DNA of 64,000 nucleotides from contig JBBCJC010000011.1 in assembly GCA_037189525.1 (NCBI GenBank), positions 11,634-75,633 of the forward strand, read 5' to 3'. The notes under the pieces were generated by a model. That model saw nothing but the letters and a program-made list of their open reading frames with translations, ran no database searches and was not told the origin of the DNA. This DNA is from Gemmatimonadales bacterium. Its GTDB lineage: Bacteria; Gemmatimonadota; Gemmatimonadetes; Gemmatimonadales; GWC2-71-9. Position numbers and translations under genes: made by a program. Position 1 is the stretch's first letter. Every line of letters begins with the position of its first letter. Of the stretch, positions 10,905-41,291 are shown piece after piece.

Positions 10905-12350
10905 CTAGGGAGATCGGGGAATGGCCGCGCCGTGGCAGGCGGCGCACATCTCCGGGTTGCGGCGGCGGAGGCGTTCGGCGTCGAAACCGGGGCCGTGCGG
11001 GTTGAACCGGAAGCCGCGCCCGATGGCCGCGTGGCAGGCGGTGCAGTCGCGCTCGGTGTGACAGGAAACGCACGATTCGAGCGATTGCCGGGCCGCCTGG
11101 CCATGGCCCAGGATGAACGAGGCCCTGCCGTCGTGGAAACGGGCGCTGCCGAGCGAGCGGCTGGCGCCGAGTCCGGCCTGGGCGTGGCAACTGGCGCAGA
11201 ACTGCTGGGTGTTGTGGCAGTCGCTGCAACTGGTCTGCCGGGCAAACGCGGCGCTCGGGTGGCTGGTCAGGAACCCGGCCGGATGGTAGTTGCCTCCGGA
11301 CGGCTGCCCCGGATCGGGCCGGTGGCAGGCAAGGCAATCCTCGCGGACGTGACAACTGCTGCAACTCCGCGGCGCGGCCGTGGCGGTGCCCGCATGGTTC
11401 TCCCGGAACTCCACGGTGTGCGAGGCTGGCGGACGCCGGTCGAGCAGGGCGCCGGCGGCCCGGCCCGGCGCCGGCTGGTGCAATGCCGTTACCGCGCGGG
11501 GAGCCGGAGCGACGTGGCAGGCGGCGCAGCTGGGCTGGGCGTGGCACGTGGCGCAGCTGGCGGGATTGCGTTGGGCCTGGCGACCGTGCGCCGTCGCGAA
11601 GTTCCGGGCCGCGTGCGACGGCGGAGCGACGAATTCCGCGCGATGAACCAGCGACCGCTCGTCCGGCCTGAGCGCCTGGATCGCGGCGACCTCGGGGGCG
11701 TTGACGTGGCAGTTGAGGCAGAAATTCTGCGCATGGCAGGTCGCGCAGCTGGCGGAAACGGTCGGCTGCCCGCCCGGGGTTCTCACCGAAGCGAGCTTGG
11801 CATGACCGCTGAGCCCGAACTCGGGGGCCTGGTGAGAGGGCGGAGCGGGAAACCCGCGGATCTGGCCCGCCGGGAGCGCGACGGCCTCCGCCAGAGGAAG
11901 GTGACAAGTGGCGCACTGCTGATTGACCACGGTGAGATGCTCGGCGCCGGGCTGATGGCAGTCGATGCATTGAGTCACCACGTTGCGGTGGACCTCGCTC
12001 CGCAGGCCGTCAGTGGTGTGGCACTGGGCGCAGCCGACCGAGTCGGCGGTGGCGCTCGAGTGCCGGTCGTGCGCAAAGCGCAGGTTGGACGGAGGCGGTG
12101 CCAGAGGGGCCGTCCAGCTGACCACCGGCGCGACTTCGCCGTCATGGCATGCTGCGCACTTATCGCGGTCGGGCCAGACGGCAGCGCCGAGCTCCGCGGC
12201 GCCGGCATGACAGGTCGTGCAGGCCAGCGGAAACAGCTTGCCGTGGACCGCGTGGTCGAAGCCCCGCCGGGACGAGGCGGCCCGGACGGCTGCCGCGGCA
12301 AGGATCAGCGCCAGGCCGGCGGCCACCAGTCGAAAGGTGCGCGCTCTCAT
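10905..12350 (-). CDS. Periplasmic multiheme c-type cytochrome, 16 CxxCH
   Basis: Signal peptide MRARTFRLVAAGLALILAAAAVRA; 16 CxxCH counted, with five tandem CxxCH-x4/5-CxxCH doublets. Confidence 0.92.
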   Translation of the reverse strand: MRARTFRLVAAGLALILAAAAVRAASSRRGFDHAVHGKLFPLACTTCHAGAAELGAAVWPDRDKCAACHDGEVAPVVSWTAPLAPPPSNLRFAHDRHSSATADSVGCAQCHTTDGLRSEVHRNVVTQCIDCHQPGAEHLTVVNQQCATCHLPLAEAVALPAGQIRGFPAPPSHQAPEFGLSGHAKLASVRTPGGQPTVSASCATCHAQNFCLNCHVNAPEVAAIQALRPDERSLVHRAEFVAPPSHAARNFATAHGRQAQRNPASCATCHAQPSCAACHVAPAPRAVTALHQPAPGRAAGALLDRRPPASHTVEFRENHAGTATAAPRSCSSCHVREDCLACHRPDPGQPSGGNYHPAGFLTSHPSAAFARQTSCSDCHNTQQFCASCHAQAGLGASRSLGSARFHDGRASFILGHGQAARQSLESCVSCHTERDCTACHAAIGRGFRFNPHGPGFDAERLRRRNPEMCAACHGAAIPRSP

Positions 12351-12375
12351 CGGCGCCGCTCGCTCGGCAGGAGGA

Positions 12376-13869
12376 TCATCGGCGCTCTCCGCGAGGTACT
12401 GCGTGAGGCAGGGGGAGCCGATCGGCATTGGAGCCGAAAAGAACCGTCACCCGGGCCGACACGCGGAGCTGATCCCAGTCGAGCGCGCGCGCGTCGAGCC
12501 GTTGCCGCTGTTCGTTGTATCGGGCGGTGGTGATCCCCACCCGCCATCGGTCATTGGGCCGGTACTCCGCATCCGCGCCGAATCCCAGAAGCTCGGCGTC
12601 GTCATAGCGTAGTTCCAGCGGGCGCTTGCTGCGGGTGCCGTGCGCACTGAGCCAGAGCCGGTCGGTCGCGACCCAGGTGACCCGGCCGTCGAACCCCCGC
12701 GACGCTGCCCCCGGCCCGAACTCGGCCCGATAGCCTGCATCGACCGTCCAGCGGTCGGCGGGGCTCCAGGTCACGCCCGACTCGAATCGCCAGCCGCGAT
12801 CCTCTACCGTAATACCAGGGGTGAAGGTTTCCGTGTCGTCGAAGCGGAATCGCTCGCCGCGGGCCCGAAGCGTCACCCGAGCCGTGGGACGGACCGTGCC
12901 GGACAGGTGCCAGGCGTGATGAGCCACGGGGCTGAAGGCGCCCCAGATGGTCCACAGGTCGAAGAACGGCCGGTAGCGGCGGACTCCGCCGCTCACGCTG
13001 AAGCGCGGGTCGATCCAGCTGACCGTCGCGTCGGCGCTGCCTACCTGGCCAAAGGCGAGATCGTATTCGCCACCCGTCGTGAGGCTGACGCGGCGGTGGG
13101 GCCGAATGGCGATGGCGGCGGCGGCCCGCTCGGACACGAAGTAGTCGACGGCGGGATCCAACTCCCTCCGGTACTCGACTCGCGCATTGGCCACGGCGTG
13201 GGTCCAGCCCAGCTCGAGGCCCGCAACTACCTGTCGGTCGCGGGGTTGAAAGTCGTCGAGCGGATTGAGGGCCGGATCGGTTACCGGAAGCATGGCGCCC
13301 CGCGCCAGGCCCCACCCCGCGTATCCTCCCGCTTCGAGGCCGGAACCCCGATGCCGGACGAGCACGCGGCCTCCGTCGAGCCCATAGGCTCCCAGTCGCC
13401 CTAACAGCAATTGACGTCCCGCCCGGGCGATCAGCTGGTTCCGTTGGTATTCGAGATATCCCTCGACCAGCTGAAGGGCGGGTTCGGTGCCGGGCCAGCT
13501 GGCCTCGCCCAGGTCGGTGGCCGAGCGGACGTTGGCGCGGGCGGTCAGTCCGGCCACACCGAAGCCCCAGACGGTCAGGTCGGCCTGGGTCACCCAGGGC
13601 ATTCCGCGCAACTCGGCGCCAGGTGCGAAGTAGGAGCAGGTCTGCTCGCCGCACAGCGCGGCGTAGCCATCCGGCGTGAGGAATCCGCCCCCCGTCTGCG
13701 GAATGGCTTGGGCGCGCGGGAGGGTGCCGGCCAGAACCCCGCGCCAGGCCACGCTCTGCAGCCGGCTGTCGAGCCTGACGCGATACCCCTGCGCGGCGGC
13801 GGTCGTGGCCGTAGCAGTCGAGAGGCCCAGCGCAGCAAGCACAATCAGGCCGAGACGTGGGACGATCAT
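12376..13869 (-). CDS. Probable outer-membrane beta-barrel (porin of a porin-cytochrome complex)
   Basis: Signal peptide ending AAA-Q; alternating amphipathic strands rich in G/R/W/Y/F; ATGA overlap with the upstream cytochrome; lies between multiheme genes. Confidence 0.75.
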   Translation of the reverse strand: MIVPRLGLIVLAALGLSTATATTAAAQGYRVRLDSRLQSVAWRGVLAGTLPRAQAIPQTGGGFLTPDGYAALCGEQTCSYFAPGAELRGMPWVTQADLTVWGFGVAGLTARANVRSATDLGEASWPGTEPALQLVEGYLEYQRNQLIARAGRQLLLGRLGAYGLDGGRVLVRHRGSGLEAGGYAGWGLARGAMLPVTDPALNPLDDFQPRDRQVVAGLELGWTHAVANARVEYRRELDPAVDYFVSERAAAAIAIRPHRRVSLTTGGEYDLAFGQVGSADATVSWIDPRFSVSGGVRRYRPFFDLWTIWGAFSPVAHHAWHLSGTVRPTARVTLRARGERFRFDDTETFTPGITVEDRGWRFESGVTWSPADRWTVDAGYRAEFGPGAASRGFDGRVTWVATDRLWLSAHGTRSKRPLELRYDDAELLGFGADAEYRPNDRWRVGITTARYNEQRQRLDARALDWDQLRVSARVTVLFGSNADRLPLPHAVPRGERR

Positions 13870-15920
13870 GAGCGCCCCGGTCCGGTCAGCCGGCGCCGCA
13901 GTTCGGCCGGCGACTCGAGGAAATGGCAGGTGGCGCACTCGCGGCTCGGATAATGATCCTTCGCTTGCTCGGCATGGCAGGTCGCGCAGAACAACCGGTC
14001 GGGAGTAAACCGGGCCACGGTCGACGCGGTGTGACAGGCATCGCAGCGCTGGTGCGACGCCGCGAGGTCGTCCGCGTGCGCGGTGCGGATCTCGGGGCCG
14101 GTGTGACAGGCAGCACAGCTTCGGCCCGCGGCGTGGTGATCGCTATGACAATCGGCGCAGCGGCGGACGCCTTCCGCCGGCGCCAGCGACACCGGCTGGG
14201 TATGGCAGGTGACGCAACGGAGTTCGGTGTGTGTCTGGTGCGCAAAACCGACGCTCCTGACCCGTGGCTCCCGGTCCTTGACCCCGATCGGTACCGCCAG
14301 CGCGCGGATCGCCGCCAGGTCGCCGGGGCGGTGGCACGCGGCGCAGTTGCTCGATCGTGGCGCCTGATGGTGACAGATCTGACATCCTCGCGGCGGGACG
14401 AAGGTCAGTGTTGCAGAACTCGCTCCGGTGGTATGACAGGTGATGCAGGCAAGGCGGGTATGTCGGGCATGGGGAAAGGAGTCGACGGACGCAATCGATG
14501 GTTCGGCTGCTGCCGTTGGCGGGTCCGGCGCCGGGAGTTCCGGCGGCGGGGTGTCTCCTTTCCCGGGAAGCTCGATCTCTGCGGCTGGAGCAGGCGCCGC
14601 GGCCGGCCGCGGCGGCCAGGCTACGGGACCGGGCGGTCGTGCTCCGTCGAAGTGCCCGACACTCGGTGGAACCGGTTGCTCGGGATCACGTGCCGAAGTC
14701 CGCAGCGCCCGCGTGGTGTCGAACGGCAGGGGCGGACGGAGACGGAGGGTGCCGAAGCGCGCGGTCACGCTGGTATGGCATGCCACGCAATCGCTGGCGT
14801 CGACCCGCGCGGCGTGCTGATTGTGGCAGACCAGGCACTGCTGGCCAACCTGACCGTGAGCCCGCCCGGTATGGAACGGTACGGTCTGCCAATCCGCATG
14901 GCACTGACTGCAGGTCTTGCCTGCCTCGGCCGGGGTGGTCTGGGTGTGCGGGTTGTGGCAGGTCCCGCAGGTGCCGTTGTGCGGATCGCGCGCGGGGTCG
15001 AAGTCTCCGGCGACCTGTCGCATCGCGTGACAGGAGAAACACTGCCGGCTGCCGGGCTGCATCGCGTCGGCCGCGTCCTCGCGCGTGGCCAGCCGCGGCA
15101 CCTCGGCGGTGAACTGGTGGCACTGGTTGCAGTGCAGCGTGGACTGGGTGGCCATCCGGCCCAGCTTGATGTCGAGATTGGCGTGGCAGCCCGCGCTGCC
15201 GCAGGTCTCGTTGGCTGGGATGAACGCGTGCACTTCCTTCCCATGGCAGGTCACGCAGAGCACCTTTTCGAGCGCGCTCGAATCCGATTCCAGATGGACC
15301 CGATGCCCCGCGGTCTGCGCGATCCGGGTCCAGGCTTCGGACTGATCCTTGGCATGGCACGATTCGCAGCGCGCGTTAGGCACCGGCGCGTGGGGCGGGA
15401 TTTCCACCGGCTTGTTGGCCACCCAGAGCACCAGCTGGCGGGTGCTGGCGTAGAGCGATTGCTGATGGCAGTCGTGACACTGCAGAGCGCTGTGCTTGCC
15501 CGCGTCGGATCCGAACTTGTTCCAGGGCCCTTCCATGATGTGGCAGCCGACGCAAAAGGCGTTGTCGTGCTGCATGAAGTTCCAACTGACCTGGCCGCCG
15601 CGGAACAGGAGCGCCAGCACCAATACGGCGCCCGTGCTCATGGCGATTTTGACCCCGCGGTCCCGGGTCGTGAGCCAGTGGCCGATGGCGCTGCGTCGTC
15701 GCCAGAGGAACAGCGCGAGCCAGATGCCGACCGTGAGGCCCACCACGATCCCAACCACCCACGCCCAGGTCGGCGCGTTGAAAATGGCGCGGAGCACGGT
15801 CATGACGCCGCCGGGGATCGGCGGAGGCTCCGCAGGAACGCCCTCGCGGAATCGGTGGAAACTGGCCGAGTCGGGAATCTGCGGAGCGAGCGCGGCCAGG
15901 CCCGGAAGGAAGAGTGCCAT
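13866..15920 (-). CDS. Inner-membrane-anchored multiheme cytochrome with a NapC/NirT-like N-terminus, 19 CxxCH + 1 CX4CH
   Basis: Two N-terminal TM helices, then FCVGCHIM (CxxCHxM); 11 heme motifs, a Pro/Ala-rich linker, then 9 more; start could be upstream (16040). Confidence 0.88.
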   Translation of the reverse strand: MALFLPGLAALAPQIPDSASFHRFREGVPAEPPPIPGGVMTVLRAIFNAPTWAWVVGIVVGLTVGIWLALFLWRRRSAIGHWLTTRDRGVKIAMSTGAVLVLALLFRGGQVSWNFMQHDNAFCVGCHIMEGPWNKFGSDAGKHSALQCHDCHQQSLYASTRQLVLWVANKPVEIPPHAPVPNARCESCHAKDQSEAWTRIAQTAGHRVHLESDSSALEKVLCVTCHGKEVHAFIPANETCGSAGCHANLDIKLGRMATQSTLHCNQCHQFTAEVPRLATREDAADAMQPGSRQCFSCHAMRQVAGDFDPARDPHNGTCGTCHNPHTQTTPAEAGKTCSQCHADWQTVPFHTGRAHGQVGQQCLVCHNQHAARVDASDCVACHTSVTARFGTLRLRPPLPFDTTRALRTSARDPEQPVPPSVGHFDGARPPGPVAWPPRPAAAPAPAAEIELPGKGDTPPPELPAPDPPTAAAEPSIASVDSFPHARHTRLACITCHTTGASSATLTFVPPRGCQICHHQAPRSSNCAACHRPGDLAAIRALAVPIGVKDREPRVRSVGFAHQTHTELRCVTCHTQPVSLAPAEGVRRCADCHSDHHAAGRSCAACHTGPEIRTAHADDLAASHQRCDACHTASTVARFTPDRLFCATCHAEQAKDHYPSRECATCHFLESPAELRRRLTGPGRS

Positions 15921-16043
15921 GGTCAGGCGCTTTCCGCGCGGATCGTGATTCGGATTACGGGGCCGTGGGTCGGGCGCCTGTCCGGACGGAACGACCGACG
16001 CCCCGCGGCCGGAAGGGACCGCGGGGTCGTGGATTGGCACCGG

Positions 16044-17609
16044 TTACCGGGAGGCGCCGGCGACCGTGATCTCATGCCCAGGTATCGGCGTACTCGAGCG
16101 CCGGAGGCCGTGCGCGTATTTCCCGCCCGTCGGACCGTCCAGAATGGCCTGGATCGCGGCCGACGGGGCCGGAAGCGCGTAGGTCGCCTGCACCTCGTTG
16201 ATCGAAGCAATCAGCAGCGCTTCGCAGAGGAACGGGTTGTGGATGCCCTTCGAATTGTCGGCCGTCGACTGGCCGTACTCGCCGCACATCCGGGCGTTGA
16301 ACTCGGCGCCTTCGGCCGGGGTGATCTGATTGTCCGTCGTGCTCCACGCCTGCGGGTAGAGCTGCCGCACTCTGGGCAGCAAGCCGGCGTCGGTCGGGGC
16401 CGCCTGCATCGAACCGTTGCCGTCGGTGTCGGTCCAGAGCTGGTTGGTGAGCAGCCGCATCCGGGACCGGACGGTGGTGAATGCCGCAGCCGCCACCGAT
16501 GCGTTGGCGTGGCAACCCGAGGCGGTGCAGGTGGCCCAGGAACGCGCGGTCGGGGTGTAGCCGCAGTTGTCGCTGGCGGTCGGGCGACCCTGCTCGTCGA
16601 GGCAGGGGATCGGCCGCATCAGATGGCCGGTGGCCTGGAAGGCCTGGCCGCCCTGCTGGTCGGGCGCGGTGACGCGGTTCAGGTGGCATCCGGCGCAGAG
16701 CGTCGGGTTCGCCTCGGTGGCGTGCGAACTGAAAATCCGATCCTCGGCATAGATGAAGCCAGCCGGCCGATAGCCCGCGGTGCCGAGCAGGAGCGAACCC
16801 TGCGGAGCATGGGGCGACGAACTGGTGTTGGTCGGCGCGTCGTAGCGGAGGTGGCATTTCATGCAGAGGTTCTGTTCCACGTCCGCCGTGTTGATCGGGA
16901 AGCGAAGTTGGGACGGATTCTCCGAGCCGTGCGGATCGTGGCAGGTCGCGCAGACGGCGACCGGCTGATACGCCGTGGCTTCGCCCTTCTCCATGTAGTT
17001 GTTGGTGACGCCCCAGCGGGCCAGCGCCTGCCGGCTCTCGTGACATCCGGCGCAGGACGCGTTGGCGGTGCGGGACGGGTTCACCACCGCGTGCTGGGAC
17101 TGGCGCCACTCCTCGACGTAGGGATGGTGGGTGTCGCTGTGACACTCTGCGCAGGTACCGTTGCCCGTCATTCCGATGCGGGCGAGCGGGCGCACGACCT
17201 GTCCCTGGCCGATACCGCGGACGTGGTCGAGTCCGGGTCCGTGGCAGCTTTCACACTGGACATCGTGGTAAACGGCATCGCGGGTGGTGTTGAAGCCGGC
17301 CGCTTCGCTCACCATGTTGCCGCGCTCGGTGACCGCATGGCAACTGGCGCATTGATTCGGCGCGGTCGACGGCAGGTCCGCAAAGGTGGTGGCATGCGCC
17401 GTCGTCCGCCAGCGGCTCTGCACGTCGGCGTGGCAATTACCGCAGGTGGTCTGTTTGTTTTCCGCAGAGTAGTAGCCCAGGAAGCCGAGTGCGGCTGCGG
17501 GCGGTTCATTGAAGGGATCGCGATCGCGATAGACGACTTTGTCCGCTGCGCAGCCTGCGAGCAGGGCAGCGAGCGGAAGCGTCCGAAGTGCCAACGCAAC
17601 GATGCGCAT
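16044..17609 (-). CDS. Lipoprotein multiheme cytochrome c, 8 CxxCH + 1 CX4CH
   Basis: Lipobox LLAG-C; CESCHGPG and CATCHDPH motifs; C-terminal GIHNP. Confidence 0.9.
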   Translation of the reverse strand: MRIVALALRTLPLAALLAGCAADKVVYRDRDPFNEPPAAALGFLGYYSAENKQTTCGNCHADVQSRWRTTAHATTFADLPSTAPNQCASCHAVTERGNMVSEAAGFNTTRDAVYHDVQCESCHGPGLDHVRGIGQGQVVRPLARIGMTGNGTCAECHSDTHHPYVEEWRQSQHAVVNPSRTANASCAGCHESRQALARWGVTNNYMEKGEATAYQPVAVCATCHDPHGSENPSQLRFPINTADVEQNLCMKCHLRYDAPTNTSSSPHAPQGSLLLGTAGYRPAGFIYAEDRIFSSHATEANPTLCAGCHLNRVTAPDQQGGQAFQATGHLMRPIPCLDEQGRPTASDNCGYTPTARSWATCTASGCHANASVAAAAFTTVRSRMRLLTNQLWTDTDGNGSMQAAPTDAGLLPRVRQLYPQAWSTTDNQITPAEGAEFNARMCGEYGQSTADNSKGIHNPFLCEALLIASINEVQATYALPAPSAAIQAILDGPTGGKYAHGLRRSSTPIPGHEITVAGASR

Positions 17610-17940
17610 GGTTCGGGTTCCCGAGTGAGTACGGTGAAGCGGTTCGGACGATCGTCGCGTTCTGCTTACCGTAGTTCTACTCTAGGAGCATCGAGCCCGC
17701 TACGCAATGGGGAAACGTTTCTATTTAATAGCAGTTGAGTCGCCTTTGTGACCATGCTGCGCGCTGCAGGAATTACGAGAGAAAAATTCAGAAATCCACT
17801 TCGTCGGATGCAGCGTATTCGTGACGCGGCAAGGCTGATCGACAGGTGCCGATCGTCGAGCGCCGCGCTAATTTTCTTTGGGTAACGGGTCGGTTATTGC
17901 GACCTCGTTGATCGGATTGCTTCAACGGAGTGTGAGCGCG
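17610..17940. promoter_or_regulatory. Divergent promoter region between the cytochrome operon and the ccm operon
   Basis: AT-enriched 330-bp intergenic region; palindrome GAAACGTTTC at 17712-17721 adjoining CTATT-T-AATAG at 17721-17731. Confidence 0.55.
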
Positions 17941-18735
17941 ATGACATCGGTTCCTCCCGCATCGTGTCCTGCGTGCGGCCAACCCGTCGGCGGGCGGTTC
18001 TGCGGTTCCTGCGGCGCGGCCGTCACGTGCGGAGCTTGCGGCGCGGCGCTCGGTTCGGGCGTCCGATTCTGTGGCAGTTGCGGAGCGGCGGCGGGCGCGA
18101 TGGCTCCGGCGCGCGCGCGGGGGAGTTGGCGGACGGGTCCGGCGGTCTTCCCGCTCGCCCTTGCCGGCATCATGGTCGTCGTGGCTCTGGTCGTGTACCT
18201 GGTTCGCCGGGACCCGGCGTCGCCCGCCCTCGCTGGTGGAGTCATGGACTTTGCTCCCGGCAGTACCGAGCCGGCGCCCGCGCTGGACGGACTGTCCGGG
18301 CGTGACCGATTCGATACGCTGTACAATCGCGTCATGCGCGCGTCGGAGCGGGGCGACGGCGCCACGGTGAACCGCTTTGCCCCAGAGGCCCTGCAGGCCT
18401 ATCGGGAGCTCGAGCAGCCCGACATCGATGCCCGGTACCATGCCGCGATGCTGCGGCTCCACACCGGTGACCCGGCCGGCGCATTGGCCCTGGCCGACAC
18501 GATCGGCAGCTTGGAGTCCAGCCACCTCTTCGGTTTCGTGATCCGTGGCACCGTCGCCCGGTTCCGGGGTGACAGTACTCGGCTCTCGACCGAACAGGCC
18601 AGAGTGCTCCAGCATTATGACGCCGAGATGGCGGTGGGGCGGTACGAATACGCCCATCACAAGTTCATTCTCGACCAGTTCATCGGGGAGGCGCGGCAGC
18701 GGGCGGCGGCGCCGGCCGAACAGCCGGGACGATAG
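17941..18735 (+). CDS. Double zinc-ribbon + TM + helical (TPR-like) protein, first gene of the ccm operon
   Basis: Four CxxC (CPAC, CGSC, CGAC, CGSC), one TM helix, Ala-rich helical C-terminal domain. Confidence 0.75.
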   Translation: MTSVPPASCPACGQPVGGRFCGSCGAAVTCGACGAALGSGVRFCGSCGAAAGAMAPARARGSWRTGPAVFPLALAGIMVVVALVVYLVRRDPASPALAGGVMDFAPGSTEPAPALDGLSGRDRFDTLYNRVMRASERGDGATVNRFAPEALQAYRELEQPDIDARYHAAMLRLHTGDPAGALALADTIGSLESSHLFGFVIRGTVARFRGDSTRLSTEQARVLQHYDAEMAVGRYEYAHHKFILDQFIGEARQRAAAPAEQPGR

Positions 18736-18762: not shown

Positions 18763-19188
18763 ATGAAGGCCGGAACCAAATTCATGCTGGGCGCGGCGAT
18801 CATCGCCGGTGCGACGGCGCTTCTCATCTATACGGGGATCAGTCAGACCGGGGTCTATTTCCTGAGCCCGTCCGAGCTGCTCGCCAAGGTGGAGGCGGAT
18901 GCCTCCTTCCACGAGGTGGGACTCAAGGTCGGGGCGAAGGTCGTACCCGGCTCGATCCGGCGCGACGATGCCAGCCGGCGGATCGAGTTCAAGGTGGCCG
19001 ACGCGGGCGGGACCTTTCCCGTCGTCTATGACGGCCTGGTCCCCGACACCTTCACCGACGAGAATGACATCGAAGTCATCATGTCGGGCAAGCTCGACCG
19101 CAATGGGGTCTTCCAGGCCACCGAAGTGCTCGCGAAGTGCGGGTCCCGATACGAATCGGAGTACTCGAAACTGGCGCAGGCAAGCTGA
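18763..19188 (+). CDS. ccmE: Heme chaperone CcmE, CxxxY variant
   Basis: N-terminal TM, YFLSPSEL, VVYDGLVPDTF, EVLAKCGSRY; GGAGG RBS. Confidence 0.93.
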   Translation: MKAGTKFMLGAAIIAGATALLIYTGISQTGVYFLSPSELLAKVEADASFHEVGLKVGAKVVPGSIRRDDASRRIEFKVADAGGTFPVVYDGLVPDTFTDENDIEVIMSGKLDRNGVFQATEVLAKCGSRYESEYSKLAQAS

Positions 19189-19216
19189 CTTCCGTGCCCC
19201 GGAGTAGGCGAAGCTC

Positions 19217-21256
19217 ATGAATCTGCTTGGTCAATTCGCCCTCTGGGCCGCGCTGCTGATTTCGATCTGGGCCGTCGTGCTCGCATTTTCGGGGCAGACG
19301 GTCGAACGCGCCGAGGTGGCCCGCGCGGTTCGCCGGGCTCCGCACGCGGCCTCGCTGGCGGTCTGGATCGCCTCGATCGCGCTGTGGAAGGCGCTCTTTG
19401 CGCACGACTTCAGCGTCGAATACGTCTACGCGTACACCTCGCGGAACCTCCCCGACTACTACCTCTTCTCGGCTTTCTGGGCCGGTCAGAAGGGCTCGCT
19501 GCTCTTCTGGGCGCTGGTGCTCGGGTCGTTTGCGTCGCTGGCCCAGATCGTCACGCCGCCGCGGTATCGTGATCTCCTGCCCACCGTCGCCGGGGTGACC
19601 AGCGGGGTTCTCGCCTTTTTCCTTCTGGTGATGCTGGTCGGCGGGGCTAATCCGTTCGGCCAGCTGCCCTTCGTGCCGCCGGACGGACGCGGCCTCAATC
19701 CGCAGTTGCAAAACCCGGGGATGGTGATCCACCCGCCGATGCTCTATCTCGGGTATATCGGCCTCACCATTCCGTTTGCGTTTGCCATCGCGGCGCTGTG
19801 GCATCGGCGGCTCGACAGCGGCTGGATCCACGCGATTCGCAAATGGTCGCTCGTGTCCTGGCTCTTCCTCTCGGTCGGCATCACCATCGGTATGTGGTGG
19901 GCGTATGTCGAACTCGGGTGGGGCGGCTACTGGGCCTGGGATCCGGTCGAGAATGCGAGCCTGCTGCCGTGGCTCACGCTGACGGCCTTCCTTCATTCCG
20001 TCATGATCCAGGAAAAGCGCGGGATGCTCAAGCGATGGAACGTGGGCCTGGTGATCGGCTCCTTCCTGCTCAGCATCTTCGGCACCTTCCTGACCCGGTC
20101 GGGCGTGATTGCGAGTGTCCACAGCTTCGCGCAGTCGAACGTCGGCTATTTCTTCCTGGCGTTTCTGGTCGTGGTCGGCGTCCTGTGCTACACCTTGCTG
20201 TACACCCGCTGGCCGGCGCTCGAGCCCGAGGCGCAACTCGAATCGCTCGCGAGCCGGGAAGCGGCCTTTCTGTTCAATAACCTGATCCTGATCGGGATTG
20301 CCTTCTCGGTTCTGTGGGGCACCATCTTTCCCGTCCTGTCCGAAGCCGTGCGGGACGTCAAGATTTCGGTCGGGCCGCCGTTCTTCAATCGCGTCAACGT
20401 TCCGCTCGGTCTGATGCTGCTGTTGCTGACGGGGATCGGTCCCTTGATTGCCTGGCGGAAGACGTCGGTGCCCAATCTGAAGCGGCAGTTCGCGGCGTCG
20501 TTAGGCGGCGCGCTGGTGACCGCGGTCGTCCTGCTGGTCGCCGGGATGCGCGACTTCTATGCCCTGATTGCGCTGGTCATTGCCGCTTTCGTCCTCGGCA
20601 CCGTGGTCCAGGAGTTCGTGCGCGGTATCCGGGCCCGCCGGCGCCTCTATGGTGAATCGCTGATCGTCGCCACCGGTCGCCTGGTAGGCAGGAACCGTCG
20701 CCGCTACGGGGGCTACCTGGTGCACGTTGCCATCGTGGTGTACTTCGTGGCGTTCACGGGCGGGGCCTTCAAAGTCACCCGGGAAGCCACGCTGCGGGTC
20801 GGCGAGTCGATGGACATCCGGAGTCCCTTCGGCGCGACCTATCGACTGACCCATCTGGGCGTTTCCCAGTATGACGCGCTCAACCGCCAGGTCTCGGCCG
20901 CTACGCTGGAAGTGCGCCGCGATGGCCAGAGGATCGGGACGGTGGTGTCGGAGAAGCGCCAGCACGTCGACAGCTTCGGCAATCCGACGTTCCAGCCCTC
21001 GACCGAAGTCGGGATCCTGCCCAGCATACGGGAGGACCTCTACGTCGTCTTTGCGGGCACGGTCGATTTCACTGAGCGGGCTTCCTTTGCCATCACCCTC
21101 AATCCGCTGGTATGGTGGGTCTGGTTCGGTGGCATCCTGCTGGTCGTCGGCGGGCTGATCACGCTTTGGCCGGGCGGCCCGGGTATGGCACCGCAGGTAA
21201 CGCGAGTGCGCGCGCCCGAAGCGCTGGAGCCGGCCCCCGAGCCGGTCAACGTATGA
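19217..21256 (+). CDS. ccmF: Cytochrome c synthase CcmF
   Basis: WAGQKGSLLFW, GLNPQLQ, IHPPMLYLGY, WAYVELGWGGYWAWDPVENASLLPW, LTRSGVIASVHSFA. Confidence 0.96.
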   Translation: MNLLGQFALWAALLISIWAVVLAFSGQTVERAEVARAVRRAPHAASLAVWIASIALWKALFAHDFSVEYVYAYTSRNLPDYYLFSAFWAGQKGSLLFWALVLGSFASLAQIVTPPRYRDLLPTVAGVTSGVLAFFLLVMLVGGANPFGQLPFVPPDGRGLNPQLQNPGMVIHPPMLYLGYIGLTIPFAFAIAALWHRRLDSGWIHAIRKWSLVSWLFLSVGITIGMWWAYVELGWGGYWAWDPVENASLLPWLTLTAFLHSVMIQEKRGMLKRWNVGLVIGSFLLSIFGTFLTRSGVIASVHSFAQSNVGYFFLAFLVVVGVLCYTLLYTRWPALEPEAQLESLASREAAFLFNNLILIGIAFSVLWGTIFPVLSEAVRDVKISVGPPFFNRVNVPLGLMLLLLTGIGPLIAWRKTSVPNLKRQFAASLGGALVTAVVLLVAGMRDFYALIALVIAAFVLGTVVQEFVRGIRARRRLYGESLIVATGRLVGRNRRRYGGYLVHVAIVVYFVAFTGGAFKVTREATLRVGESMDIRSPFGATYRLTHLGVSQYDALNRQVSAATLEVRRDGQRIGTVVSEKRQHVDSFGNPTFQPSTEVGILPSIREDLYVVFAGTVDFTERASFAITLNPLVWWVWFGGILLVVGGLITLWPGGPGMAPQVTRVRAPEALEPAPEPVNV

Positions 21257-21867
21257 CCGGCCCGATCGATCGCCGTCGCGTTCTCGGTGTGCTGGCGGCC
21301 GGCCTGCTGGCCCGGCGCCTCGACGCGCAGCAGGCCGGGCAGCCCGGAGCGGCCGATCCGCTGCCACGCCCCGGCGTGGTCGGTGCGCCGCGCCGAGTGG
21401 TCGATTCGGTTCAGAATGACCCGCAGATCGTCGCCGTCGAGCGGCGGCTCCGTTGCCCCTGTCCCTGCGGGCTCGACGTCTTTACTTGCCGGACCACCGA
21501 TTTCACCTGCACCTATTCGCCGGCTCGGCACGACGAAGTGGTTGCCCTGTTCCGGGAAGGCAAGACCCCGGAGGAAGTGGTGGCCGCGTTCGTCGACCGG
21601 TACGGCGAAGAGGCGCTGATGGCGCCCAAGCCCGAGGGCTTCGGGATCGTCGGATACCTGCTGCCAGGCGCCGCCATCCTGACCGGCGCCAGCCTGCTCG
21701 GCTGGTACATCCTGCGCCGATCCCGGCTGCGTCGAGCCGCTGCCGGTGCGGTGGCGGTTTCGGATGTCTCACCGGCGCCGGTGCCGGACATCGCAGGCGC
21801 CGCCGATCGTGAAACGGCCCAGGATGTAGACCGGCTCCAGCGGGCCCTTCGGGATCTCGAGACCTGA
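21253..21867 (+). CDS. ccmH: CcmH-like protein
   Basis: LRCPCPC motif, FVDRYGEEALMAP, C-terminal TM; ATGA overlap with ccmF. Confidence 0.8.
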   Translation: MTGPIDRRRVLGVLAAGLLARRLDAQQAGQPGAADPLPRPGVVGAPRRVVDSVQNDPQIVAVERRLRCPCPCGLDVFTCRTTDFTCTYSPARHDEVVALFREGKTPEEVVAAFVDRYGEEALMAPKPEGFGIVGYLLPGAAILTGASLLGWYILRRSRLRRAAAGAVAVSDVSPAPVPDIAGAADRETAQDVDRLQRALRDLET

Positions 21868-35202: not shown

Positions 35203-35496
35203 ATGGCCAACCCCGATATCGTCGTCCCGGTTTTCGGAATGATCACGGGCATCCTGACGACCGGGGCCCTCGCCTGGGGGATGGTCAGAGTGTTCCAGGG
35301 TCCGGTGGGGCAGGCCCTGGCACGGCGGATCCAGGGACGGGGCAGCGCGCCGGAGCCCGAGCTTCTCCATGAAATCGACGATCTGCGACTGCAGGTCGAT
35401 CAGATGCAGCAGCGGCTGACCGAAGCCGAGGAACGGCTCGATTTCAGTGAACGGTTGCTGGCGCAGCGGTCGTCGGGGGAGAGCGGGCGGTTCTGA
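35203..35496 (+). CDS. Small TM + coiled-coil protein, paralog 1 (PspB-like architecture)
   Basis: TM, GPVGQALARRIQG, EAEERLDFSERLLA. Confidence 0.8.
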   Translation: MANPDIVVPVFGMITGILTTGALAWGMVRVFQGPVGQALARRIQGRGSAPEPELLHEIDDLRLQVDQMQQRLTEAEERLDFSERLLAQRSSGESGRF

Positions 35497-35539
35497 GGGC
35501 GGCCCACCGGACGGTGATGTCTCGAGGACGGGAGGAACG

Positions 35540-35800
35540 ATGGAAGGGATTCTGGCGATTCTGCTCATCTTCGGCGGCGGTACGCTCGGCGTCTTGGCGT
35601 ACAGTCCGATCGGGAAGGCCTTTGCGGCACGGATCCGGGGAGACCAGTTGCCGCCGGAAACCGATCCCGCGGTCCTGGAAGAACTCGATCGGGTCAGGCA
35701 CGAATTGGCGGAGTTGGCGGAACGGGTAGATTTCGCGGAGCGCCTGCTTGCGAATCGGGGCGAAGCACCGGTGTCGAGACTGCCGGAGGTGGGGTCATGA
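35540..35800 (+). CDS. Small TM + coiled-coil protein, paralog 2
   Basis: GGAGG RBS; SPIGKAFAARIRG, ELAERVDFAERLLA. Confidence 0.8.
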   Translation: MEGILAILLIFGGGTLGVLAYSPIGKAFAARIRGDQLPPETDPAVLEELDRVRHELAELAERVDFAERLLANRGEAPVSRLPEVGS

Positions 35801-36183
35801 TGCAGGTCGTCGTTCAGGTGCCGAATCCACCTCAGCCGCCGGACGTGTCGGTGATCGTGGCGCAGCCGCCTGACCTGCCGCCGTTTCCCCCGTTCCCGCC
35901 GGGCGGCCCGCCCGAGGCACTCATTATTGCGGGTGTCGTGATCGTCGGGATCATCGTCGCCGGCATCGTGTTCGGACCGTTGCTCCGGGCGTATGCCCGT
36001 CGGATCGAGGGCAAGGGCGCCGATGCGCAGCTTGCGACCGAGGTGGACCAGCTTCGGATCCGGGTAGCCGAGCTCGAGTCGGTGCAGCATCGGGTCGCCG
36101 AATTGGAAGAGCGGGTCGACTTCTCGGAACGCCTGTTGGCCCAGGGGCGTGAGTCCCAGTCGATCGGCCGGAATCCGGGTTGA
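35797..36183 (+). CDS. Small TM + coiled-coil protein, paralog 3, with a Pro-rich N-terminus
   Basis: ATGA overlap; GPLLRAYARRIEG, ELEERVDFSERLLA. Confidence 0.8.
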   Translation: MMQVVVQVPNPPQPPDVSVIVAQPPDLPPFPPFPPGGPPEALIIAGVVIVGIIVAGIVFGPLLRAYARRIEGKGADAQLATEVDQLRIRVAELESVQHRVAELEERVDFSERLLAQGRESQSIGRNPG

Positions 36184-36185
36184 GT

Positions 36186-36581
36186 ATGTCCTGGTTCCGT
36201 AAGCATTTCGGGATGGACGCGATCGATCTCGCCATCCATGCGGTGATGACCGGCACGGTGGCGGCTTTCGTGGCCGAACTGTTCCGTGGTCCGGCCGACG
36301 ATGCGATGATCGCGGCCGTGTTGGCCGGATCGCTCGCGGTCTTCTCCTGGCGGCGGCACCGCGGTCTTGCCAAGCTGGCGCGGACCCCCGAGGGGCTCAC
36401 CACGGGGCAGATGGCTGCCGCCCGGCTGGAAGAGTTGGAGCAGCGGGTTGCCGATCTCGAAGCGGCGGAAGCCCGCGTCCTGGAGCTGGAAGAGCGGCTC
36501 GACTTTACCGAGCGCCTCCTGGCCCGGACAGCCGACCAGGCGGCCATCGCTCCGGTCGCACGCGGAGATCACCATGGGTGA
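36186..36581 (+). CDS. Two-TM + coiled-coil protein, paralog 4
   Basis: GLTTGQMAAARL, ELEERLDFTERLLA. Confidence 0.8.
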   Translation: MSWFRKHFGMDAIDLAIHAVMTGTVAAFVAELFRGPADDAMIAAVLAGSLAVFSWRRHRGLAKLARTPEGLTTGQMAAARLEELEQRVADLEAAEARVLELEERLDFTERLLARTADQAAIAPVARGDHHG

Positions 36582-36846
36582 GCTGGGCTTTTTCGCCTTG
36601 TTCGGCGCGATTGCGGCCATCGGGGCATCGCTCTTTCTCGGTCCGATCGGGCAGGCCATCGCGCGCCGGATCGCGGGTACCCCGCCCAAGGGCCGGGACG
36701 GACTCTCCACCGGCGAGATGGCCGCCGAGCGGGTTGCTGGGCTGGAGGCGAGAGTGGTCGAGCTGGAGGAGCGCCTCGACTTCACGGAGCGGTTGCTGGC
36801 GCAGGGTAACGGCGAGCCGTCGGCCTTACCCGACCGGACGCCCTGA
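36574..36846 (+). CDS. Small TM + coiled-coil protein, paralog 5
   Basis: GGAG RBS; GPIGQAIARRIAG, GLSTGEMAAERV, ELEERLDFTERLLA. Confidence 0.8.
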   Translation: MGELGFFALFGAIAAIGASLFLGPIGQAIARRIAGTPPKGRDGLSTGEMAAERVAGLEARVVELEERLDFTERLLAQGNGEPSALPDRTP

Positions 36847-36903
36847 ATTCGGCCAAACGCAGTACATTTCTCGCCTCGGTATCGGGGCGGAGGAGGACGG
36901 CGC

Positions 36904-37299
36904 ATGGTAACAAAGGACGATCTGCAGACGTTTCTCGACCGGGTCGACGGCGGGGCCGTCGAGGTCCGGGAGGTCGAGTCCGGACTCTGGCTGGTCCGCA
37001 CGCAGCAAGGGGCTGAGGTCGTGGTCCACTACTCGCCGCCGGTGGTGATCCTCCGGTTGCGCGTGATGGAAGAGCCGGCCGCGGTCGAGCGGCGGAGCGA
37101 GCTCTTCCGGCAGTTGCTCGAGCTCAATGCCCGTGACCTGGTCCACGGATCCTACGGGCTCGAGGGTGATCACATCGTGCTCACCGACACACTGGAGCTC
37201 GAGAACCTCGACTATTCGGAGTTCGAGGCGAGCTTCGACTCGCTCACCTTGGCCCTGTCATCGCATCTGGGCGCTCTGGCGCCGTACCGCGAAAGGTAA
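36904..37299 (+). CDS. YbjN/CesT (type III chaperone-like) domain protein
   Basis: Acidic 131 aa; LFRQLLELNARDLVHGSYGL, LENLDYSEF; GGAGGAGG RBS. Confidence 0.75.
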   Translation: MVTKDDLQTFLDRVDGGAVEVREVESGLWLVRTQQGAEVVVHYSPPVVILRLRVMEEPAAVERRSELFRQLLELNARDLVHGSYGLEGDHIVLTDTLELENLDYSEFEASFDSLTLALSSHLGALAPYRER

Positions 37300-37306
37300 G
37301 CCGCGA

Positions 37307-38065
37307 ATGGGTATCTTCGAACGTTTTTCGACCATGCTGCGGTCGAACATCAACGACCTCATCAGTCGGGCCGAGAACCCCGAGAAGATGTTGAATCAGT
37401 TGATTCTCGACATGAAGACGCAGCTGGCCAAAGCCAAGCAGGAAGCGGCGGGCGCCATCGCGGACGAAAAGAAGCTGCAGGCCGACGCCGAAGGGCTCAA
37501 GAAGCAGGCGGAGGACTGGGAGCGGCGCGCCATGCTGGCCGTGCAGGAGGGCCGGGACGACCTCGCCAAGCAGGCGCTGATGCGCTACAACGAGGCCCTG
37601 CAAGGTGCGCAGCAGCTGCACGAGACCTGGGCCAAGCACCGCGCCGATACCGAGAACCTGAAGCTCCAGCTCCGCCAGCTCCACGATAAGATCGAGGAAG
37701 CCAAGCGGAAGAAGAACATCCTGGTCGCCCGGGCCAAGCGCGCCGAAGCGCAGCAGCGGATCCAGCAGACCATGTCGGGGATGTCGGACAAGAGCGCGTT
37801 CGAGTCCTTCGATCGGATGGCCGAGAAGATCGAGTCGATCGAGCGGAAGGCGCTCGCGGCCGCCGAACTGCAGCAGGAGTTCGAGGGCGACGACCTGACC
37901 CAGCAGTTCAAGCAGCTCGAGTACCATGGCTCGTCCGATCAGCAGTTGATCGAACTCAAAGCCAAGATGGGACTGCTCAAGGGCGGCAGCGACGAGGCCA
38001 AGAAGCTCGGCCGGGGCGAGGCCGTGGTGGATGATCCGGAAGTTCTGGAGGATGATGGCCGATAG
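37307..38065 (+). CDS. pspA: PspA/IM30 (bacterial ESCRT-III-like) protein
   Basis: MGIFERFSTMLRSNINDLISRAENPEKMLNQLILDM, GRDDLAKQAL, FDRMAEKI, ELKAKMG. Confidence 0.93.
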   Translation: MGIFERFSTMLRSNINDLISRAENPEKMLNQLILDMKTQLAKAKQEAAGAIADEKKLQADAEGLKKQAEDWERRAMLAVQEGRDDLAKQALMRYNEALQGAQQLHETWAKHRADTENLKLQLRQLHDKIEEAKRKKNILVARAKRAEAQQRIQQTMSGMSDKSAFESFDRMAEKIESIERKALAAAELQQEFEGDDLTQQFKQLEYHGSSDQQLIELKAKMGLLKGGSDEAKKLGRGEAVVDDPEVLEDDGR

Positions 38066-39386: not shown

Positions 39387-41291
39387 TCAGGCCGGCTGGT
39401 CGAAGATTGTACGTACCTTGCGAACCAGCAGTTCGAGTGAATACGGCTTGAGCAGAAAAGGATGCCCGCCGAGGTCCGCTTCGTCGAGATCAGCAGCTCC
39501 GGAGGTGAGCAGGGTGCGAACGCTGGAATAGCGGGTGCGGAGCTGCGCCAGGAGGTCCCGGCCATCGCCGTCGGGCAGGTGCAGATCCGCGATGACGAGA
39601 TCCGGAGGTTTCCGCATTTCGCCGGCCAGCTGGAGCGCCTCGGCGACACTGGCCGCCACCGCGACCTCGTATCCGTTGGCGGTCAACATGGCGTTGCCGA
39701 CGGCGCGCACCTGCGGCTGGTCTTCCACCAGGAGGATGGTCTCGGTCCCGCGAGCACCCGTTGCGTCGCTGCCCGCGCCAGGCGTTTCCTGGGTTTCCTG
39801 CGCACGTGGCAAATAGACGTGAAAGGTGGAGCCCTCTCCCAGCGTCGAATCGACCGTGATCACGCCCTGGAATCGTTCGATGATTCCGTGACAGGTGGCC
39901 AGGCCGAGTCCGGTGCCCGTGCCCCGGGGTTTGGTGGTGAAAAACGGCTCGAACATCCGGGCTCGCACATCGTCGGGAATACCGGTGCCGGTGTCCGTCA
40001 CCGAGATCCGGACCCAGTCGCCACTGGCCAGCGCGGCGGCGGTACCGGGACGGCCGTTCGGAACATTGCTGGTGGTAATGGTGACGGCGCCGCCGCTCGG
40101 CATGGCGTCGCGGGCGTTGACGACCAGGTTGGTGAGCACCTGTTCGAGCTGACCCCGGTCGGCCACCGTGGCCCAAAGGTCGGTTGCCAGTGCGGTGCCG
40201 CACTTGACGGTGCTGCCCACCAGACGGCTGAGCAGCCGCTCCAGGTCGGCCACCATGCGGTTCAGGTCGAGCTCGGTTGGTTCGGACGGCTGCCGTCGCG
40301 CAAACGACAGCAACTGTCGGGTCAACGCTGCGCCCCGATTGGCGGTGGCGGCGATACTCTCGAACACGGGGCGGACTGCCAGGGGAAGATCCGGCTCGCT
40401 CAGGCCGGTTTCCGCTTCGGCCAGCATGACGGCGAGCAGATTATTGAAGTCGTGGGCGACACCACCGGCCAGACGTCCCAGGGCGTCGAGTCGCTGGGCG
40501 TCCTGGAGCTGGGTTTCCAGGCGGCGGCGCGCGGTCGTGTCTTCGTACATTGCGACGAGCGCCCCCGGCGTTTCCGGATGGTCGGTCAGACGCGCCGCAC
40601 TGAGCCGCAGATCGATGATCGCACCGTCCGGCCGGCGATACTGCAGGTCGATGCCGGTCAGTTGACGGCCGCGCAAGACTCCGTCGAGGAGCAGGTGGGC
40701 CGGGCCCTCGATTGCATGATCCAGCGGCGGCATCGGCTGACCGATGACCTGGGAGGCGGGTACGCCGAAGACCTGCTCGGCGGCGCCGTTCCAGAGTCGG
40801 ACCGTCAGGTCGTCGTTCAAGACGGCAATCGGGAGCGGCGAGGCGTCGAACACGGCGCTCAGCAGGCGCTGGGTCCGGTGGAGTTCATCGCGCGCCTGGC
40901 GCAGACGCCACCGCCCCTCGGCCGTGCGTAAGGTGCGCACGAGCAGGTCGGGGTCCACCGGCTTGAGCAGGTAGTCGCACTCCTCCTCCCGCAGGGCACG
41001 GATGGCGCTTTCCAGCGTCCCGTTACCGGTCAGGATGACCACCTGCATTTCCCCCGAGTAGGCGTGCAATCGCACCGCCAGATCCAGCCCGTCCATGTCC
41101 GGCAGCCGGAGGTCGACCACGGCCACCGGCGGGGTGTGTCGCGCTTCCTGGGCAAGGGCCAGCGCCTCGCCACCGGTCTGCGCCGTGAGCGGCGCAAAGC
41201 CATGCAGGGGGAGGATGTCCTCCAGGGTCCGGGTCAGGATCTCGTCGTCGTCGACGACCAGGACCGGAACGTGATCAGCGTCGGTCAGCAT
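39387..41291 (-). CDS. Hybrid histidine kinase REC-PAS-HisKA-HATPase-REC
   Basis: VVDDD...[39 protein letters not shown]-terminal REC. Confidence 0.93.

Follow-up and report, generated by a model that had tools for sequence, protein, structure and literature searches.

A candidate trans-membrane electron conduit encoded by a four-gene, 45-heme operon of Gemmatimonadota

The minus strand of the window (the whole stretch of DNA that was analysed, 64,000 nucleotides) carries four linked genes, here called A, B, C and D, with a motif count of 45 heme motifs (9 in A, 20 in B, none in C and 16 in D). Four linked minus-strand genes with about 45 motifs had been claimed in an earlier note on this DNA, and our recount gave the same: 43 CxxCH and two CX4CH motifs, distributed over A, B and D. 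The genes and their surroundings are:

16044..17609, minus strand: gene A, lipoprotein cytochrome c with nine hemes, OcwA type (521 amino acids; 8 CxxCH and 1 CX4CH; lipobox)
13866..15920, minus strand: gene B, predicted inner-membrane 20-heme cytochrome (684 amino acids from the probable ATG start at 15920; 19 CxxCH and 1 CX4CH)
12376..13869, minus strand: gene C, predicted 22-stranded outer-membrane beta-barrel without plug domain (497 amino acids; signal-peptide-like N-terminus; no heme motif)
10905..12350, minus strand: gene D, 16-heme cytochrome with signal peptide (481 amino acids from the probable ATG start at 12350; 16 CxxCH)
17610..17877, no strand assigned: intergenic region between the start of gene A and its divergent neighbour, with a higher A+T content, the presumed promoter region (from the sequence)
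17878-18735: gene for a zinc-ribbon membrane protein between the operon and ccmEFH, side context
18763..21867, plus strand: ccmE, ccmF and ccmH (System I heme attachment), divergent from the operon (Pfam, NCBIfam)

The stop of B overlaps the start of C by 4 nucleotides, C and D are 25 nucleotides apart, and the distance between A and B is 123 nucleotides if B starts at its ATG or 3 nucleotides if it starts at an alternative GTG at position 16040 (ORF 13866-16040). The longest ORF of D begins at 12428 (10905-12428). Only 10 ORFs of at least 60 amino acids with at least two CxxCH motifs are present in the 4.65-Mb genome, with A, B and D being the largest three, indicating that the heme-motif density of these genes is not caused by chance; all heme cysteines and histidines are invariant across the alignments of relatives. 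No sigma-70 consensus was found in the intergenic region 17610..17877, and a scan for promoters and terminators returned nothing exceeding shuffled sequences. The host genome has two matches to PF01578 and the neighbouring ccmF is the only one of ccmF length; ccmEFH are thus probably housekeeping genes. A function as dedicated maturase of the operon was considered for ccmEFH and rejected, as there is just one other PF01578 gene in the genome. In some relatives, ccm genes are also found near the operon.

Gene C encodes the protein that the earlier note took for a porin. Its AF2 model (pLDDT 86.7, pTM 0.81; strands from DSSP) has 22 membrane strands and neither a plug nor a chaperone domain, and its structural neighbours in Foldseek and VIA searches are outer-membrane barrels of 6-13% identity: both the porin call and the beta-barrel topology, which the note had named beforehand as a point to check, are borne out by these predictions. 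The best structural neighbour is a TonB-type barrel (VIA: Z 18.8, rmsd 4.2, 360 aligned residues); for the MtrB structure the values are Z 15.5, rmsd 6.2 and 10% identity, and no OmbB-type structure is among the Foldseek or VIA matches listed. Profile searches (Pfam, NCBIfam, MtrB_PioB) found no named family above its cut-off, none of 37 members of the C family has an MtrB_PioB match at E 0.1 or better and PF11854 has no match anywhere in the host genome. When the C profile was compared with PDB sequences, there were no matches at E 1 or better, with 6R2Q present in the library. C is predicted to be an outer-membrane barrel of an unnamed family and not an MtrB. It has a long loop at residues 299-314 that is invariant among relatives.

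Gene D has a layout of five N-terminal c7/ActA-like hemes, five paired-heme repeats and one last heme. The alignment shows 16 conserved distal histidines for the 16 hemes, indicating that the hemes are likely all bis-His, and D is densely packed (about 29 residues per heme); heme density and number of distal histidines are likely those expected of a wire. Over its repeats, D scores 45 bits with PF22113, the profile for heme domains of MtrC, and so passes the cut-off of 30; D is not a lipoprotein. TIGR03508 (decaheme MtrA/DmsE) gave no match to D at E 0.05 or better and the match to 6r2q_A is weak (E 0.025). D homologues with 9, 11, 12 and 14 hemes exist. A separate family of short D-like proteins was considered and rejected: these proteins are mostly fragments of full-length members. 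Two named short D-like matches carry the labels Ca. Eisenbacteria and NC10, both unconfirmed.

A model of the complex between C (residues 27-490) and D (residues 160-481), a check that the earlier note had proposed, reached a score of 0.66, with 0.00 for the best of three controls, and supports binding. This mark is attained by 116 of 157 solved pairs and by 2 of 215 mismatched pairs, a calibration that is only approximate for the present alignments; the passing score may also reflect likeness to the solved MtrAB complex. The model runs have at least 51% of contacts in common, with a partner pLDDT of at least 65. The interface is formed by residues 357-472 of D and pairs the invariant loop 299-314 of C with the invariant D motifs 415-431 and 450-453. 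The loop-rich barrel end holds most of the confidently modelled contacts, and the last five hemes of D are predicted to be placed at the barrel's outer end; placement in the lumen was read from alternating strand residues in the contact lists, not from coordinates. According to the model, the C-terminal hemes of D likely run through the barrel. All four shortened D relatives (9-14 hemes) retain the barrel-contacting C-terminal part.

C homologues are present in 135 and D homologues in 138 of the 301 sampled genomes of the phylum, and comparison of both listings finds the two together in 132 genomes. The gene immediately after C is D in 20 of 20 loci, in 20 of 20 distant loci and in all 78 testable loci of a set of 80; the three sets overlap and kin genomes are not independent. 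Among 80 loci found with D, C precedes D in all 52 that were testable. A adjoins B in most loci, and a quinol-linked partner is usually encoded beside C and D; of the 54 loci with at least 4.5 kb of upstream sequence, seven do not have both A and a full-length B. In seven loci (L037, L051, L054, L056, L066, L148 and L150), A stands beside C and D in the absence of the head of B, indicating that A is tied to the barrel rather than to B. Two loci without the B head (L052, L063) encode a protein that combines 19 hemes with a cytochrome b domain and, separately, a NapC-like protein with 21 hemes. The lineage suspected in the earlier note, Gemmatimonadota, agrees with the named sources of the homologues (Gemmatimonadales/Gemmatimonadota) and with the titles of 79 of the 80 carrier genomes, which name the phylum or one of its orders; the remaining title reads proteobacterium. 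All 80 carrier genomes are MAGs according to their titles, and a cultured carrier was not found.

Gene B starts with two hydrophobic trans-membrane helices that flank an Arg/Lys-rich loop; the NrfH-like head is followed by 11 hemes, a variable Pro/Ala-rich linker and a 9-heme c3/c7-like module, which is a free-standing protein in some relatives. With NrfH (2J7A chain C) and NapC/NirT/CymA, B shares a membrane helix followed by a CxxCHxM heme 1 (Met169 in 17 of 17) and heme 2. B differs from NrfH by an extra N-terminal helix (in most members), by having 20 hemes rather than four and by its divergence after heme 2: the match to 2j7a_C (E 5.4e-8) spans only the trans-membrane helix and hemes 1-2, the score with TIGR03153 NrfH is 36.5 bits, far under the cut-off of 134.2, and there is no PF03264 match at E 0.01 or better. 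B has no obvious copy of the Lys/Asp pair that we take to be the quinol site of NrfH. A search with the B profile missed the NrfH-like protein of the host genome, which the bias filter removed. From its sequence features, B is likely a quinol dehydrogenase plus periplasmic relay.

The lipobox of gene A ends at Cys20, which is present in 77 of 77 aligned homologues. A consists of a c554-like N-terminal half and an NrfA-like C-terminal half with a helical bundle. OcwA is the best match of the A model (AF2 pLDDT 74.3) in Foldseek (E 3.6e-6, TM 0.45-0.48, rmsd 8.9), a modest fold match, and the A profile matches 6i5b with an E value of 1.1e-6; MtrC and MtrF have no row in the fold search. With OcwA of Thermincola potens (6I5B) and OmhA of Carboxydothermus ferrireducens, A has nine hemes in matching order in common, as well as a helical bundle at the C-terminus that carries the same motif with His and, following heme 4, an HH pair. 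In contrast to OcwA, A is a diderm lipoprotein encoded with a barrel, has only 15-16% identity, lacks the insertion of roughly 55 residues after heme 4 and lacks the His/Met ligation of heme 9: where OcwA has Met, His296 is found in 75 of 77 homologues, with no conserved free Met (mapping from the alignment).

H161 and H162 of A align to OcwA's HH pair (H161 in 68 and H162 in 46 of 77 homologues), and H267 (76 of 77) is a single His where OcwA has HH at heme 5. We considered bis-His ligation for every heme of A, as the number of free conserved His equals that of the hemes (nine each), and dropped this, as two of the histidines map on OcwA's non-bonding caps and one is variable. Hemes 2 and 5 are possibly open. 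The role of OcwA as cell-surface iron-oxide reductase accompanies its two open heme sites, and the enzyme slowly reduces nitrite and turns over hydroxylamine (PMC6703420); with A being of the OcwA type, a catalytic heme in A is thus possible. The OcwA-related family also includes periplasmic enzymes (PMC9250108). By analogy to OcwA, A is likely a surface-facing terminal reductase.

A common plan connects the operon with MtrCAB plus CymA (6R2Q), MtoAB and PioAB: a barrel-sheathed cytochrome (predicted here), a lipoprotein cytochrome (here the likely outer partner) and a NapC/NrfH-like quinol module. The parts differ: C has 22 strands and no MtrB_PioB match while 28 strands are predicted for MtrB, D has 16 hemes and MtrA is decaheme, A is OcwA-like and not MtrC-like, and B is a fusion of the quinol module with a periplasmic relay, unlike in CymA systems. 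The view of the earlier note that gene order and heme counts are unlike MtrCAB thus holds, and PDB and Pfam/MtrB_PioB searches found no close match to a characterised complex.

The Geobacter-type Pcc (OmbB-OmaB-OmcB, ExtABCD, ExtEFG) also combines a porin with periplasmic and lipoprotein multiheme cytochromes and often has a membrane cytochrome nearby. The 22 strands of C fall within the 18-22 predicted for Pcc porins (PMC4245776, which also gives the 28 of MtrB), and the Pcc clusters of Shi et al. 2014 include those of Ignavibacterium album and Anaeromyxobacter (PMC4245776). Differences to Pcc are the 16 hemes of the periplasmic partner (5-14 in Pcc), the OcwA-type nine-heme lipoprotein gene at the first position and the gene for a 20-heme NrfH-headed membrane cytochrome within the operon. 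Remote homologues of C and D (hhalign 99.0%) stand in the Pcc order of porin, 11-14-heme cytochrome and 10-12-heme lipoprotein-like cytochrome, so that the barrel may be distantly related to Pcc instead of having been invented independently. NCBIfam returned no porin match for four and Pfam none for five of the remote homologues, although these databases may not include the OmbB, ExtB and ExtE families. The operon may likewise be a distant Pcc branch.

PCC3 and PCC4 are similar in being single clusters proposed to span the envelope, with heme-dense repeat cytochromes (He et al. 2017, PMC5566968); in PCC3, the median heme counts of the cytochromes are 34 and 21, and the porins have up to 42 strands (PMC5566968). 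At the inner membrane, PCC3/PCC4 have a cytochrome b-like protein with five helices and two HX13H motifs (PMC5566968), in contrast to the two-helix c-type B here; the operon has no other membrane gene. The claim that the whole path is encoded in one operon is a supported reading, but not new in itself: PCC3/PCC4 (PMC5566968) precede it, as does the Rhodoferax mtr cluster with cymA, which also holds a whole path in one cluster (PMC6295460).

We consider it highly probable that the operon encodes a trans-membrane electron conduit, whichever the direction of the flow, and favour, with moderate confidence, an outward conduit from quinol to the cell surface in a heterotroph. B would oxidise menaquinol at its NrfH-like membrane head, and its heme chain and the 9-heme tail on the flexible linker would conduct electrons through the periplasm to D, where the N-terminal hemes would receive them. 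D hemes 12-16 are predicted to fill the plug-less barrel, with the outer end wrapped by the barrel's long loops. At the surface, the lipoprotein A would accept the electrons and pass them to oxides of Fe(III) or Mn(IV), to humic quinones, to electrodes or to partner cells; a side activity with nitrite or hydroxylamine at open hemes is possible. The location of A and the direction of flow are what we infer in this scheme.

The host genome is 98.1% complete and has the futalosine menaquinone genes; neither RuBisCO nor NiFe hydrogenase was found in it and the host thus looks heterotrophic. This argues against the rather unlikely possibility of inward flow, in which Fe(II), reduced humics, a cathode or partner cells would feed menaquinone and O2 or N2O respiration as a mixotrophic supplement, similar to MtoAB/PioAB. 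Such a flow would be feasible given the three heme-copper oxidases, one of them cbb3-like (types read from the sequences), and the NosZ-like protein of the host, and CymA-type proteins can operate in both directions (PMC6295460). The resemblance of A to OcwA, a known terminal reductase, points in the opposite direction. Moreover, electron transfer from Fe(II) to low-potential menaquinone is uphill at neutral pH.

It is unlikely that A is a periplasmic enzyme that reduces a soluble compound, be it nitrite, hydroxylamine, NO or a sulfur oxyanion, and is fed by the B head in the manner of NrfHA, with C and D as a side branch. The NrfA/HAO-superfamily fold of A, the histidines retained at both OcwA open-heme caps, the activities of OcwA with nitrite and hydroxylamine (PMC6703420) and the position of A next to B in most loci would all fit. 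However, NrfA is a pentaheme protein with a CxxCK catalytic heme, and none of the nine hemes of A has a CxxCK motif, with PF02335 below its cut-off; the variable heme-2 cap is unlike a conserved active site, and A travels with C and D where the B head is absent. The genome also already has a separate pair, presumably NrfH/NrfA-like as named from its motifs. Very unlikely is a barrel that serves as a pore through which D or A is exported or by which it is anchored (for instance in a surface cytochrome layer or filament), or 45 hemes acting mainly as charge capacitor across oxic-anoxic shifts: contacts at the loop-rich end also fit docking from outside and the barrel is similar in size to transport barrels, but C lacks plug and chaperone domains, pairs strictly one-to-one with a densely packed bis-His D whose barrel-contacting part is always kept, and usually has a quinol-linked partner encoded alongside.

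Soils, sediments and sludge harbour abundant Gemmatimonadota, which are treated as plain heterotrophs. If the outward conduit operates throughout the carriers, nearly half of the phylum would be electroactive via a hard-wired 45-heme chain of fused B, 16-heme D in an unnamed 22-stranded barrel and an OcwA-type surface terminal with open hemes, a proposal that we make tentatively. No soluble shuttle would be needed in such a chain, as B would be both quinol dehydrogenase and periplasm-spanning wire, and a major aerobic soil phylum would have been overlooked as one that reduces metal oxides and humics where microsites are anoxic. PMC11316326 describes Gemmatimonadota as abundant in marine sediments and reports MtrCAB in three marine MAGs and, widely in marine Gemmatimonadota, matches to the FeGenie DFE_0461-0465 cluster; MtrCAB was further reported in one Gemmatimonadetes genome (PMC8805035). 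MtrB-based marker tools miss barrel C, and these few reports of MtrCAB compare with 135 C-carrying genomes among the 301 sampled. A description of the operon was not found in the literature, which was searched mainly as open text without figures and some supplements.

If the conduit works, it would add a large uncounted group to the redox cycling of iron, manganese and humics, with the barrel and the D repeats as a ready marker, and would provide a compact module of four genes for electron export that could be tested in heterologous hosts. It would also link the OcwA-type fold, whose characterised examples so far all come from Gram-positive cell walls, to diderm porin conduits.

As side observations that serve as leads only, atlas searches found look-alikes of the D repeats most commonly in Myxococcota and Ignavibacteriota, and, for C, unnamed clusters of Gemmatimonadota. 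One A homologue in RefSeq, WP_337172543.1, is labelled Gemmatimonas aurantiaca (protein record only).

The four tightly linked minus-strand genes and the heme motifs that the earlier note had assigned to them are borne out by a motif count, which gives 45 heme motifs for A, B and D together. The genes and the neighbouring ccm genes are:

16044-17609, minus strand: gene A, lipoprotein cytochrome, 8 CxxCH and one CX4CH, lipobox Cys20
13866-16040 (probable ATG at 15920), minus strand: gene B, cytochrome, 19 CxxCH and 1 CX4CH
12376-13869, minus strand: gene C, without heme motif
10905-12350, minus strand: gene D, 16 CxxCH
18763-21867, divergent from the operon: ccmE, ccmF and ccmH, Pfam/NCBIfam matches

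B and C overlap by 4 nt and the gap between C and D is 25 nt. Only 10 open reading frames of the host genome have two or more CxxCH motifs, and A, B and D are the three largest. Going by the names of homologues, the host belongs to Gemmatimonadales. The operon is real and conserved: among the 54 loci of relatives with at least 4.5 kb upstream of C, A is upstream of C in 50, and A and a full-length B are both upstream in 47. At one locus (L031:3-3074) no stop separates B from C and the signal peptide of C is intact; this single open frame is either an assembly error or read-through. A zinc-ribbon membrane protein gene (17878-18735), divergent from A, lies near the operon or the ccm genes in many relatives; its C-terminal part has no family.

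The proposed porin, C, is supported as a beta-barrel by its AlphaFold2 model (116-sequence alignment; pLDDT 86.7, pTM 0.81) and by structural matches: the model has 22 membrane strands by count and, since strand 1 begins directly after the signal peptide, no plug. The Foldseek matches listed are outer-membrane barrels with 8-13% identity, with MtrB (6r2q_B) at rank 10 (TM 0.42, 10% identity); the best VIA-align match is a TonB-type transporter barrel (Z 18.8, rmsd 4.2, 360 aligned), compared with Z 15.5, rmsd 6.2 and 349 aligned for MtrB. C belongs to a large family: 1484 of 8000 scored candidates are members. Separately, clustering at 50% identity gives 969 clusters, of which 242 reach 1e-30 or better; the best 150 of the 969 were listed. 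Among the matches listed for 37 diverse members, none is over a Pfam or NCBIfam cut-off, and MtrB_PioB matches none of the 37. Going by the tests made, the operon is neither MtrCAB nor PCC3 nor PCC4. Five genomes (G214, G184, G324, G325, G134) have two strong copies of C each.

In the accessible parts of the literature, an MtrCAB is described for one Gemmatimonadetes genome (PMC8805035), three MtrABC operons along with widespread FeGenie DFE matches for marine MAGs (PMC11316326), and the PCC3/PCC4 clusters in PMC5566968. No description of the A-B-C-D operon was found in literature that included these parts and those of PMC6295460, PMC11495043, PMC13591261, PMC8478452, PMC7399161 and PMC13264449 (outside its Fig. 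6).

C is followed by D in 20/20 loci drawn from 20 of the 26 other matching genomes (D is split in two in one locus), in 20/20 loci chosen from distant families (19 of 135 matching genomes) and in all 78 testable loci of 80, the remaining two stopping at a contig edge, and in the reverse test from D, C precedes in all 52 loci (of 80) with at least 500 nt upstream; these sets overlap, and related genomes do not count as independent. Of 301 genomes in one sample of the phylum, 135 matched C, 138 matched D and 132 matched both (listings compared). D has five N-terminal hemes with likeness to c7/ActA, then five repeats of paired hemes and one final heme; its 16 non-motif histidines are each kept in 17-20 of 20 sequences, so that D would fit an all-bis-His wire. 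A complex model of C (27-490) and D (160-481) supports binding, with a score of 0.66 (best control 0.00) that may owe something to the solved MtrAB complex; the mark for such models is reached by 116/157 solved and 2/215 mismatched pairs. The runs share at least 51% of contacts, with a partner pLDDT of 65 or higher. The confident contacts join D 357-472 (hemes 12-16) to alternating residues on several strands and to the long-loop end of C, which by standard barrel topology is the extracellular half of the lumen. Tightest is the pairing of the invariant C loop 299-314 with invariant D residues 415-431 and 450-453, and the C-terminal part that contacts the barrel is retained in each of the four shorter D relatives, which have 9, 12, 12 and 14 hemes.

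Five stretches with weak matches, fetched from two further families of the phylum that lie outside the window's class, have triads homologous to C and D (L231-L235, from G046, G049, G054, G064 and G066). All five have, in this order, a 410-457 aa gene (37-64 bits with the C profile), an 11-14-heme D homologue and a 10-12-motif lipoprotein-like cytochrome, which is the gene order of the Geobacter-type porin-cytochrome (Pcc) clusters. Profile-profile comparison of C with the 410-457 aa genes gives porin homology at 99.0% (E 5.4e-18, 397 columns), and look-alikes of the D repeats occur in clusters of Myxococcota and Ignavibacteriota. Pcc clusters have 18-22 strands and 5-14 hemes, the Ignavibacterium album member being 14-heme and 400-aa, according to Shi et al. 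2014 (PMC4245776). That C is a remote relative of OmbB, ExtB or ExtE is a live possibility, and the barrel can be called wholly new only with that reservation. The third gene has CxxxxCH/CxxCH repeats in three of the five stretches, with TIGR01904 over cut-off in L231.

The profile of A matches the Thermincola surface reductase OcwA (6i5b) at E 1.1e-6, and OcwA is the only Foldseek match of the A model (pLDDT 74.3) below E 0.001 (3.6e-6, TM 0.45-0.48, rmsd 8.9), followed by HAO and NrfA at E 0.05-0.1. PMC6703420 and PMC9250108 describe OcwA as a cell-surface reductase with nine hemes, of which hemes 2 and 5 are open and capped by His-His pairs, and with weak nitrite reductase activity. In an alignment of 77 sequences (the window and 76 distinct homologue entries, one perhaps its close twin), seven free histidines of A are kept in 75-77, and Cys20 and a likely disulfide, C336-C349, in all 77. 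Positions mapped from local alignments place H267 (76/77) at the heme-5 cap and H161 (68/77) and H162 (46/77) at the heme-2 cap, so A may have open hemes; it has no CxxCK. A adjoins C-D without the head of B in seven loci, which argues that A belongs with the barrel. Three loci (L037 in G027, L051 in G081, and L147) have two tandem copies of A upstream of the barrel, with B missing or reduced to its tail; at one His-cap position the L037 copies have Asn and Met.

B has an Arg/Lys-rich loop between two helices which, by the positive-inside rule, would place its hemes in the periplasm. The likeness to NrfH covers the second helix and hemes 1-2 (2j7a_C, E 5.4e-8), CxxCHxM is invariant, and TIGR03153 scores 36.5 bits (cut-off 134.2). 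As the match ends after heme 2, and the Lys/Asp pair of the NrfH quinol site is not evident in B, quinol oxidation is a putative function of B. Eleven hemes are followed by a variable Pro/Ala linker and nine more; elsewhere this tail is found both on its own, as an exported protein, and joined to other NapC-like proteins, the mark of a relay module. At loci L052 and L063 B is missing, and a 19-heme protein there has a cytochrome b domain. Large multiheme islands surround C-D in L052 (G104), L053 (G134), L055 (G162) and L063 (G302), with 9-, 11-, 18-, 19- and 21-heme proteins, cytochrome b fusions and repeated tetraheme proteins; A was not seen in the fetched stretches of L052, L053 or L063.

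The operon products probably form a porin-cytochrome conduit, whichever its direction. Futalosine menaquinone genes are present in the 98.1% complete host genome, as are three heme-copper oxidases, a NosZ-like gene that stays under the clade I cut-off, and cytochromes of NrfH/NrfA-like and ActA-like type, named after their motifs; MtrB, RuBisCO, NiFe hydrogenase and bd oxidase were not found in it. For a heterotroph with an OcwA-like terminal, electron export is the likeliest use, and we somewhat favour outward flow; inward use stays conceivable. The NrfA-like protein of the NrfH/NrfA-like pair (G000:C1:743725-745678) carries five CxxCH motifs and lacks CxxCK at heme 1, a His-type variant. In one DNA run with the label microbial fuel cell metagenome, the fraction of sampled operon words present is 0.24, which is no sign of electroactivity.

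Elsewhere in the window, four small membrane proteins without Pfam family precede a CesT/Tir-like chaperone-fold gene and pspA (35203-38065), and seven signalling genes are densely packed at 39387-48431 (hybrid PAS kinases, HD and HDOD response regulators, an OmpR-type regulator). At 50268-54494, a DUF4402 pilin-like gene, a chaperone-like gene and a 778-aa protein without Pfam match have a layout that we take to resemble a chaperone-usher type locus.
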